In this document: positions 20,787 through 57,950 of the stretch, one piece after another
Layout of the letters: the number at the start of each line of letters is the position of its first letter
Position numbering within the stretch: position 1 is the first letter of the stretch
Origin: a virus
Taxonomy: Duplodnaviria; Caudoviricetes
Reading direction: 5' to 3' (one strand)
Virus record (IMG/VR): IMGVR_UViG_3300017722_005389
DNA: 64,000 nt
Notes under the pieces: model-generated
Told to the model about the DNA's origin: nothing
What the model saw: only the letters and a program-made list of their open reading frames with translations
The model's database searches: none
Translations under genes and position numbers: made by a program

Positions 20787-20889
20787 TCTCATGTGGCGGA
20801 AAGGTGTAGACGCAAGATCGTAGGTAGCATCGTTCACAGCCAGCCTTAAACGTGGTGAACATAACAAGTTCGAATCTTGTTCTTGAGAT
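20787..20889 (+). tRNA. tRNA-like RNA, class II (Leu-like D/T arms), non-canonical anticodon arm
   Basis: TCTCATG/CTTGAGA acceptor, TGGCGGAAAGGTGTAGACGC D-arm, ACAAG-TTCGAAT-CTTGT T-arm; no clean anticodon stem; no encoded CCA. Confidence 0.6.
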
Positions 20890-47963: not shown

Positions 47964-48060
47964 AGTCCTGTGGCGGAATTGGTAGACGCACCGAAAGGTA
48001 GGAACGGTATGGAACCCGATTAAATAATCCTAATTACAGGTTCAAATCCTGTCAGGACCA
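47964..48060 (+). tRNA. tRNA-like RNA, class II (Leu-like D/T arms), non-canonical anticodon arm
   Basis: GTCCTG/CAGGAC acceptor, TGGCGGAATTGGTAGACGC D-arm, ACAGG-TTCAAAT-CCTGT T-arm; ACCG/CGGT stem with 11-nt loop; ends ACAA not ACCA. Confidence 0.65.
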
Positions 48061-55207: not shown

Positions 55208-55660
55208 TTAAAATACTTTTGAGTAATCTTCTTTGTTAAAGAGTTTTATAATATCTCTCAATACATCTGTATAATTCTCAAGAGGAATGTTTATACTAAA
55301 TTCAACGTAACCATGCCCAGTACCATCCCCTAAAAAGTTTTTATCTGCTTTTGAGGTTTCTTTATACTTTTCATATAACTCTCCTAAGCTAATAAATTGA
55401 GTGCTTTCTCTATAACCTAATACTTTCATTTTAAACTTAACAGAATCCTTTGTAGCGTAAAATGAAGGCACTTCATATCTTTGACCTATTTTGCCTAAAT
55501 GAATAGTGCAATAGGAATTGTAGTCGTGTACTTCAACATTTATTCTAAATACATTTGAGAGGTCATTTGCTAATGTTTTTGCAAATGCTTTGTTTCTTTT
55601 AACGTTATCAATTTCGGTTCTTTCAGAATCCAACATTGCTTGAAGAAATAAGTTTTCCAT
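55208..55660 (-). CDS. Hypothetical protein, tandem paralogue A
   Basis: MENLFLQAM..SERTEIDN. Confidence 0.7.
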   Translation of the reverse strand: MENLFLQAMLDSERTEIDNVKRNKAFAKTLANDLSNVFRINVEVHDYNSYCTIHLGKIGQRYEVPSFYATKDSVKFKMKVLGYRESTQFISLGELYEKYKETSKADKNFLGDGTGHGYVEFSINIPLENYTDVLRDIIKLFNKEDYSKVF

Positions 55661-55780: not shown

Positions 55781-56239
55781 TTAAAATACTTTGGCGTATC
55801 TATTTAATTTAAACAATGATAGAATATCCTTTAGAACATCATCATAATTCTGAAGGGGAATTTGTATTCTAAACGTAACGTTACCATGCCCACTTTTCTC
55901 ATTTAAGAAATTATTATCTGCTGTAGCTGAATCTTTATATTTCTCATATAAATCTCCTAACAGCCTTCCAAAAAGTTGCGACTCACCTCTATACCCCAAT
56001 ACATTCATATTGAATATGACACCATCTTTTTTAGCAATAAAGTATGGGCAATTAAATCTTTGACTCATTGTTCCAACATAAATTTGTGAAGAATCAATAG
56101 AATCACTGATTTGCAAATTTATTTGAAATACTTTCGAAAGGTCATTTGCTAATTTTCTTGCGAAATCTTTGTTTGCTTTAATGTTATCAATTTCAGTTCT
56201 TTCAGAAATTGGCATTGCTTGAAGAAATAAGTTTTCCAT
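55781..56239 (-). CDS. Hypothetical protein, tandem paralogue B
   Basis: MENLFLQAM..SERTEIDN. Confidence 0.7.
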   Translation of the reverse strand: MENLFLQAMPISERTEIDNIKANKDFARKLANDLSKVFQINLQISDSIDSSQIYVGTMSQRFNCPYFIAKKDGVIFNMNVLGYRGESQLFGRLLGDLYEKYKDSATADNNFLNEKSGHGNVTFRIQIPLQNYDDVLKDILSLFKLNRYAKVF

Positions 56240-57011: not shown

Positions 57012-57851
57012 TCAATAAATTTCATCTAAGTCGATTCCGTGAGTTTCATACCACCATTCTTTTGACTTATTAGAATGTTTATCCTTTAATCTGTTATATC
57101 GTTCCAAAATTTTGTTTTGGCGTTCAATTTCATTATTAAAAAACTCATGTTCTAATACTTCTCTACACTTGTATATTTCACGAAGTATTTTACGTAAAAC
57201 ATAACCTTGTTTTAGATTAGAGGGTATATAACCACTTTCTATAATTTTTAGAGCCGTATCTTTGAGTGTTTCAACTTTATCTATTTTTTTACCATTGACA
57301 AACATTTCAAGTCTTTCAAGCCCAAATCCAACATCAATACAATTATCAAGTGGGTTGACAATATTACCAATTTCAATACCATCAACAAAAAATTCTGTAC
57401 AATAACCTCCTATTTCACCATCGCTCCAATGACAGTTTTCATCGTCTACTATTACATCCTCAATGCCCAGTTGATTATAATATCCAAGCCACTCTTTTCT
57501 GTCACTATGAATTGTAACATAATCGGGTGTAATACCTATTTTTTTTAAGAATGTAACCCAAAAGATAATAGTATCTTCAATAGACATCTCTCTGAATGAG
57601 AATAACCCAATCATATTAAAATAGAGCAAATGGGATAAATCGCCTATTTCTTCAAAGTCATTCATTCGAATACAAGCTTGAACATTTGAAACAGTATTTT
57701 TATATTCGCTATCTTTGAATTGACATTTGAATTTTTGCATTCCTGCAGGGCAAAACAAAGTTGTATTGTCATAAGGATTTACTTTGTTTTCAATGCTAAA
57801 GAAGATATTTTTTTCTTCGCAAAATTTTTGGTATTCTTCAATAATATTCAT
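57012..57851 (-). CDS. Stand-alone alanyl-tRNA synthetase aminoacylation domain (minimal AlaRS)
   Basis: TLFCPAGMQ.FK, VQ.CIR.ND...IGD..H..YFNM.G.FSF, NCHWS.G..GG.C.E, EIGN.V, ID.GFGLERL, SN..QGYVLR...R. Confidence 0.85.
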   Translation of the reverse strand: MNIIEEYQKFCEEKNIFFSIENKVNPYDNTTLFCPAGMQKFKCQFKDSEYKNTVSNVQACIRMNDFEEIGDLSHLLYFNMIGLFSFREMSIEDTIIFWVTFLKKIGITPDYVTIHSDRKEWLGYYNQLGIEDVIVDDENCHWSDGEIGGYCTEFFVDGIEIGNIVNPLDNCIDVGFGLERLEMFVNGKKIDKVETLKDTALKIIESGYIPSNLKQGYVLRKILREIYKCREVLEHEFFNNEIERQNKILERYNRLKDKHSNKSKEWWYETHGIDLDEIY

Positions 57852-57950
57852 AAAATAAAATTTAATAAGTGAATTAAATATTTGACCCTACAAAGATATG
57901 CAAAGCAATTCACATTTCCAAAAGAAATGCAAAATTATTTCAAAAGAATT

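Follow-up and report, generated by a model that had tools for sequence, protein, structure and literature searches.

The 64-kb stretch analysed here (the window) belongs to a phage genome of ~271 kb. Its minus strand carries an ORF of 279 amino acids, which a first reading of the letters without database searches (the sequence-only reading) had assigned to a minimal alanyl-tRNA synthetase (AlaRS) with class II motifs, set in its own promoter cassette. Both parts of this description hold. The protein, termed mini-AlaRS below, matches the Pfam family tRNA-synt_2c (PF01411; E=1e-20) and AlaRS chains are its only sequence matches in the PDB. The gene and its surroundings are organized as follows:

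57012–57851, minus strand: condensed mini-AlaRS gene, 279 aa, from an in-frame ATG to TGA, no leader
57891–57922, minus strand: Bacteroidota-type promoter (TTTG, 20 nt, TATCTTTG) 5′ of the mini-AlaRS gene
57840–57936, no strand: upstream copy of a 97-bp direct repeat (family D14) spanning the promoter, the 5′ UTR and the first codons
56899–56995, no strand: downstream copy of the 97-bp repeat, 92% identical, carrying the promoter of the next gene

The promoter pattern TTTG-N20-TATCTTTG has 13 matches in the window versus 4.6 expected. Since the 97-bp repeat is found on both sides of the gene, the unit can be viewed as a single-gene cassette. A relative whose protein is 91% identical has other neighbours and its mini-AlaRS gene lacks a promoter of its own. 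A copy 78% identical to that of the window is found in a Flavobacterium bin, in keeping with a Bacteroidota host for the window phage. From the host-type promoters and the small genes we infer that the locus lies in the early region. The window also carries, at 55208–55660 and 55781–56239, tandem paralogous genes of 150 and 152 aa that belong to no known family, each with its own promoter cassette.

The ORF has one third of the normal AlaRS length and broken copies exist in two other near-complete phages that lack tRNA-Ala (L071 (G039) and L075 (G042), with a frameshift or in-frame stops), as would be found if it were a gene fragment, a pseudogene or an assembly artefact. This explanation is refuted and retains practically no probability. 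The identical protein is present on several independently assembled contigs, the longest of 271,677 bp. The search for relatives returned 977 clusters, and 106 of the best 120 have a length of 270–295 aa. The gene is under strong purifying selection (dN/dS of 0.08 to the 91% relative and of 0.12 to a 73% relative), and its relatives share the internal deletions.

No editing or C-Ala sequence was found in the ORF, as the sequence-only reading had stated, nor elsewhere in the 64-kb window when C-terminal halves of AlaRS served as queries for profile and tblastn searches. The protein is therefore not a canonical four-domain AlaRS, both domains being absent. A split gene, which the sequence-only reading had named together with an assembly break as an outcome that would overturn it, was rejected on the absence of a C-terminal half from the window, which covers 64 of the ~271 kb, and of the tRNA_SAD domain (PF07973) from all 25 carrier records, 8 of them near complete. 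No second PF01411 or PF07973 gene was found in the carriers checked.

The predicted model (pLDDT 90.9) has class II motifs 1–3 in an AlaRS fold. Its 279 residues all align with residues 2–409 of E. coli AlaRS (Z 23.0, rmsd 4.0), and it also aligns with residues 60–458 of the A. fulgidus enzyme. The match to GlyRS-alpha has a Z of 14.9; an identity as the bacterial GlyRS alpha subunit (GlyQ) was rejected because AlaRS chains alone match by sequence and because of this difference in Z (23 vs 15). Alignment with Salmonella AlaS places the loss of ~130 residues within the aminoacylation module, not at the C-terminus. On the alignment and the predicted model, a reading of the protein as a C-terminal stump is thus wrong: the whole aminoacylation module is condensed by internal deletions. 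The following segments were delimited within the gene:

57291–57851, minus strand: class II catalytic domain, about residues 1–187, with R62, H74, F78, M80, W142, E160, N163 and V165 invariant in 93 members
57312–57335, minus strand: motif 3, D173 to R180 (E. coli D235, G237, R242)
57180–57224, minus strand: PSN...GYVLRKILR, residues 210–224, in which N212 corresponds to E. coli N303 (U70 contact) and R224 to R314/315
57030–57056, minus strand: WWYETHGID, residues 266–274, with E269 aligned to E. coli D400 (G3 contact)

The equivalents of E. coli R69, H86, F90, M92, W170, E209, N212, V214, D235, G237 and R242 are invariant in 93 of 93 non-redundant members, and 69 bacterial copies likewise show no change in the alanine/ATP pocket. 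The altered amino acid specificity proposed from the letters alone finds little support, the residues that contact alanine being unchanged. N303 and D400 of E. coli AlaRS read the G3:U70 pair (PMC6055181). The first position is occupied by N in 71 of 93 members and is replaced in the other 22; the second is D in 66 and E in 13 (D or E in 79/93), E269 being common to most of the closest relatives of the window protein. WWYETHGID aligns with LYDTYGFP of full-length AlaRS and the ORF stops 10 residues past the D400 position. With both positions present, mini-AlaRS carries both ends of the tRNA-recognition domain. The sequence-only reading was right about the GYVLRKILR helix but had credited the protein with only the start of the tRNA-recognition helices.

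Several features count against a functional AlaRS. The smallest active E. coli AlaRS fragment, which has 442 aa, is about what charging needs (PMC11392972), and mini-AlaRS lacks ~130 residues of that span. An E. coli fragment of 461 aa binds tRNA poorly (PMC10036535). Substitutions D400N and D400A lower the kcat/Km of E. coli AlaRS about 25-fold in a table that does not list D400E (PMC6055181), the residue found in the window copy. The family has four changes near the active site (W211G, F215N, E91N, N95L); that these altered residues could confer resistance to an inhibitor is speculation. Four cysteines are also highly conserved in the family.

Given its small size, mini-AlaRS might instead be part of a multi-subunit enzyme, as Nanoarchaeum AlaRS-alpha and GlyRS-alpha are, or act as a partner-dependent decoy that binds tRNA. 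It has the size of GlyRS-alpha, E. coli fragments that small are inactive (PMC11392972), and in a few huge phages a 246-aa GlyRS-like core adjoins it. We consider this very improbable. The D400 motif lies on mini-AlaRS itself whereas Nanoarchaeum has it on the beta chain (PMC11392972), the catalytic residues are invariant, the tRNA_SAD domain is absent from the 25 carrier records, and the gene moves alone among unrelated neighbourhoods.

Missing proofreading is also compatible with a deliberate mischarger that, in alanine shortage, would load Ser or Gly onto tRNA-Ala, or alanine onto G3:C70 tRNAs, the benefit being either that ribosomes do not stop or that the host proteome is corrupted. The D235 and V214 equivalents are kept, as in Ser-misactivating enzymes (PMC12143591), and loss of N303, whose equivalent is replaced in those 22 members, relaxes G3:C70 rejection in E. 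coli (PMC6055181). A gate that responds to hungry alanine codons (see below) would fire in alanine starvation too. But the window copy keeps N212, and mistranslation would strike phage proteins as well. Mischarged products would be cleared by host AlaRS editing and by trans-editors. The viral TuAlaRS, described below, shows no serine toxicity in yeast (PMC10036535). Deliberate mischarging seems quite improbable, even if the retained D235 equivalent and the missing editing domain make it plausible, judging from sequence, that mini-AlaRS is error-prone.

ARAGORN identified no tRNA in the window. Two tRNA-like RNAs (47964–48060 and 20787–20889) have D and T arms of the Leu/Ser type and anticodon arms that depart from the standard form. 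They were rejected as substrates: both have U3:A70, which agrees with the earlier statement that neither has a G3:U70 pair, and the relaxed ARAGORN output is noise. In the absence of a tRNA-Ala gene in the window, host tRNA-Ala is the likeliest substrate here. The carriers of the family range from phages under 70 kb up to 635 kb. At 10 of 16 non-redundant tRNA-rich loci a tRNA-Ala is among the two nearest tRNAs, versus 4.8 expected (label-shuffling p=0.0015 with no correction); one of these ten calls is probably wrong. The neighbouring tRNA-Ala genes have G3:U70 except for doubtful AGC calls. Phages of 482, 508 and 635 kb have 61–68 tRNAs, and their tRNA-Ala pattern matches lie less than 2 kb from mini-AlaRS. 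The link is not obligate. tRNA-Ala is far off in several carriers, and three near-complete genomes with an intact mini-AlaRS (G002, G036, G038) have none, as is the case in the window, which counts against the AlaRS reading. tmRNA was rejected as a dedicated substrate because it is present in only 4 of 25 carriers and in none of these three genomes.

The same loci bear on a non-translational role, also envisaged from the letters alone, in which alanine or lactate would be activated and passed to a protein, a lipid pathway or a carrier protein. The AlaRS catalytic domain has lactyltransferase activity in organisms as distant as bacteria and mammals (PMC12143591), a tRNA-Ala is missing from some carriers, and the family has its own substitutions near the CCA path. 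Yet no conserved acceptor or partner gene was found in the phage or bacterial loci, the tRNA-recognizing stretch formed by the last 70 residues is conserved, and the tRNA-Ala linkage as well as the alanine-codon leader described below both indicate Ala-tRNA. We thus regard such a ligase as unlikely. Kinship with non-translational synthetase paralogues (carrier-protein ligases, EpmA, MprF-linked) was rejected since the tRNA-recognition motifs are kept and no neighbour is conserved.

The tRNA islands around mini-AlaRS also carry compact Gly-, Tyr-, Glu- and Trp-like synthetases. A stand-alone class IIa core of 246 aa, most like GlyRS-1 and apparently without an anticodon-binding domain, is found at L080:19220–19960 and in L013, L052, L061 and L076, near tRNA-Gly genes and often beside mini-AlaRS; these cores are candidates for a mini-GlyRS family of huge phages. 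A 290-aa GluRS-like core, TyrRS and Thg1 recur in the islands (L052:6530–7402, L013:11493–12572, L014:14206–15279, L073:10743–11576), in line with an over-representation there of tRNAs for Glu, Gly, Tyr and Ala. In an 85-kb phage whose only tRNA is tRNA-Arg (L007:9138–11472), mini-AlaRS is flanked on one side by a 238-aa class Ic (Trp/Tyr-type) synthetase and on the other by a 210-aa HisRS-like core. Phage tRNA-Ala with G3:U70 and unusual D-arms occur at L008:2575–2646, L015:9806–9878, L076:8118–8270 and L080:19130–19204, and possibly fit an elbow-independent mini-AlaRS better than host AlaRS. Two tRNA-like RNAs with G3:U70 and an odd or missing anticodon arm are found directly 5′ of mini-AlaRS (G034:C1:54582–54658 in L063 and G032:C1:23544–23609 in L061).

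A branch with an SH-aLRT of 99 keeps the 42 minis together in a tree built from 106 rows. The phylogeny against full-length AlaRS that the sequence-only reading had called for places neither a sister group nor a donor, in trees built without eukaryotic, archaeal or Tupanvirus rows. The best long matches are Patescibacteria AlaRS of 550–590 aa; these were rejected as the donor because the minis sit in the tree on a long branch with no sister. Databases auto-annotate family members as alanine-tRNA ligase-related. No paper describing the family was found in the literature searched, in which few subscription papers were within reach.

The family extends to bacteria. A scan of GTDB genomes yielded 79 loci, mostly in Rhizobium, Neorhizobium, Phyllobacterium and Inquilinus and also in Caulobacteraceae and Planctomycetota bins. 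The gene is present on 89 Rhizobium plasmids (e.g., RL_RS26335 on pRL9 of strain 3841), and 9 of the 10 bacterial carrier genomes checked also have a full-length alaS. No INSeq entry for the pRL9 gene was found under guessed locus tags. On pRL9 mini-AlaRS follows two toxin-antitoxin pairs, Phd/PIN and Xre/RES (L244:4065–5822); an Xre/RES pair adjoins the gene in 14 loci. A direct-start copy on a 1.36-Mb contig of an Armatimonadota bin (L226, G053) is the sole PF01411 match in that bin, for which an incomplete bin, a prophage or a true replacement of alaS are candidate explanations.

An in-frame ATG is missing in 85 of the 157 mini-AlaRS loci with a readable start. Instead, 82 of these 85 (84 by eye) have a +1-frame ATG or GTG, with X-XNN-GCN after it. 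This start is mostly preceded by GGAGG and opens a short leader with an alanine codon (GCC, GCA or GCT) at leader position 3, 4, 6 or 8, the leader stop coming 0–7 codons beyond it. A −1 slip at the alanine codon would bring the ribosome into the mini-AlaRS ORF. The codon 5′ of the alanine codon varies (GAC, AAC, TTA, TCC), and the base before it always equals its first base (G-GAC, A-AAC, T-TTA, T-TCC), so that re-pairing is possible after a −1 slip. Where the main-frame codon shifts from CGC to AGC, the GC of the leader is kept, even where the genome has about 30% GC. Among 42 representatives the leader is found in 25 of 26 without an ATG versus 1 of 16 with one, in lineages that are not independent; the motif by itself is present in 13% of control windows. 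Leader-type ORFs have a dN/dS of 0.06–0.36, a purifying selection which implies that they are translated somehow. Shifts to −1 at GCA alanine codons by tRNA-Ser3 are known in E. coli (PMC6920855).

Re-initiation at a non-AUG codon was set aside as a general explanation: it could account for the loci with CTG, TTG or ATA, but in others the site is followed by CTA, AAT, AAC, CAG, CCG, CCA or CAT. Transcriptional slippage is unlikely, the runs being just 2–3 nt long. No common downstream stimulatory structure was seen at the leaders. These features suggest that expression of mini-AlaRS is gated by Ala-tRNA shortage in the leader-type relatives, a feedback logic that holds only if the product restores Ala-tRNA. 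Of the branches sampled, the deepest has the leader, and 5 changes (at least 3 of them forced) are needed on the tree. This suggests that the gate is ancestral and was lost repeatedly, the clade of the window phage being one such case: the window copy has a plain in-frame ATG and no gate. Leaders are found at L167:4975–5010 and at about 80 other loci (e.g., L012, L013, L021, L030, L041, L063, L069, L080, L241–L243 and L244). The NCBI start calls for leader-type genes are probably wrong.

The closest known system is the mini-AlaRS of Tupanvirus (TuAlaRS, 461 aa; Antika et al. [quoted passage not shown] Both are viral proteins reduced to the aminoacylation module by natural loss of editing and C-Ala, and would have only the acceptor stem to bind. 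They differ in size (279 vs 461 aa), in architecture (internal deletion vs C-terminal truncation of TuAlaRS) and in the readers of the third base pair, the phage protein keeping N and D/E where TuAlaRS has P and T. TuAlaRS groups with eukaryotic cytosolic AlaRS whereas the present family is found in phages and bacteria, many of its members having, unlike TuAlaRS, the alanine-codon leader. Compared to E. coli AlaS (876 aa; fragments 368N, 442N and 461N; PDB 3hxu), mini-AlaRS shares the fold of residues 2–409, the pocket and the N303/D400 positions; it differs in the missing editing and C-Ala domains, in the intra-module deletions and in the four changes near the active site. The alpha chain of Nanoarchaeum equitans AlaRS, also a small natural AlaRS piece, alanylates minihelices independently of G:U, is devoid of the D400 motif and has a beta partner (PMC11392972); no partner gene was found in mini-AlaRS carriers. 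Huge phages are known to encode synthetases beside cognate tRNAs (Al-Shayeb et al. 2020, PMC7162821), an arrangement similar to the tRNA-rich loci reported here, but the mini-AlaRS family is found also in tRNA-poor phages and in bacteria. LR745206 from that study carries a member and one fragment is auto-annotated in its supplement; the condensed architecture is not described in its text and supplements.

Genes such as prfB/RF2 and antizyme are controlled by frameshift-gated feedback, with a leader and a slip set by shortage of their own product. The relatives of the window copy, not the copy itself, would share with them a short leader and a slip on product shortage, the difference being that the gene codes for a synthetase, the shift is −1 and charged tRNA-Ala is proposed to be sensed. 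No synthetase gene under programmed frameshifting was found described in the literature searched, again with few subscription papers within reach.

The activity, substrate, slip and triggering stress that we infer from sequence, predicted fold, conservation and context can be assembled as follows. Mini-AlaRS would form Ala-AMP from alanine and ATP, grip the acceptor stem alone by recognizing G3:U70 through N212 and E269, with the R224 helix as an additional contact, and transfer alanine to tRNA-Ala with no proofreading. We consider it probable that it is such a stand-alone, proofreading-free backup AlaRS that charges RNAs with G3:U70. The supply of Ala-tRNA, one of the roles suggested by the sequence-only reading, is supported by the invariant alanine pocket, the retention of both G3:U70-reading positions, the tRNA-Ala linkage and the leader of the relatives. 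In the window phage the enzyme would be made ungated, from a host-type promoter and an ordinary start, and would charge host tRNA-Ala and possibly tmRNA, presumably keeping Ala-tRNA up during infection. Family-wide, its role would be that of a backup AlaRS. In the probably ancestral arrangement, the leader would tie translation to a −1 slip at the alanine codon: scarce Ala-tRNA would stall the ribosome at GCN, the stall would lead to the slip and the enzyme would be made, a negative feedback. Candidate threats to the Ala-tRNA supply are demand, an AlaRS inhibitor, and a toxin or defence system. The broader proposal has about an even chance of being correct: mini-AlaRS would be the smallest self-sufficient AlaRS known (~280 aa), and would serve phages and soil bacteria as a hitherto undescribed emergency synthetase, translated once the ribosome slips by −1 at a hungry alanine codon; it would rescue translation when the housekeeping AlaRS or the Ala-tRNA pool is hit by an inhibitor, a toxin or an anti-phage defence, the window phage having an ungated version.

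The occurrence of the gene in cultured rhizobia beside a normal alaS and the alanine-codon leader of the relatives are observations new to this analysis. The surprise comes mostly from the size and from the family leader, which is missing in the window copy. If the protein is active, the minimal natural AlaRS drops from 461 to about 280 residues, and the family would offer a natural model of how tRNA can be recognized by its acceptor stem alone (the “operational code”) and, for synthetic translation systems, a scaffold of small size. The cultured Rhizobium copy (RL_RS26335) opens a metagenomic family to genetics. The alanine-codon leader, if true, would be a case of a synthetase gene under programmed frameshifting and points to a stress that depletes Ala-tRNA in cells with a normal alaS.
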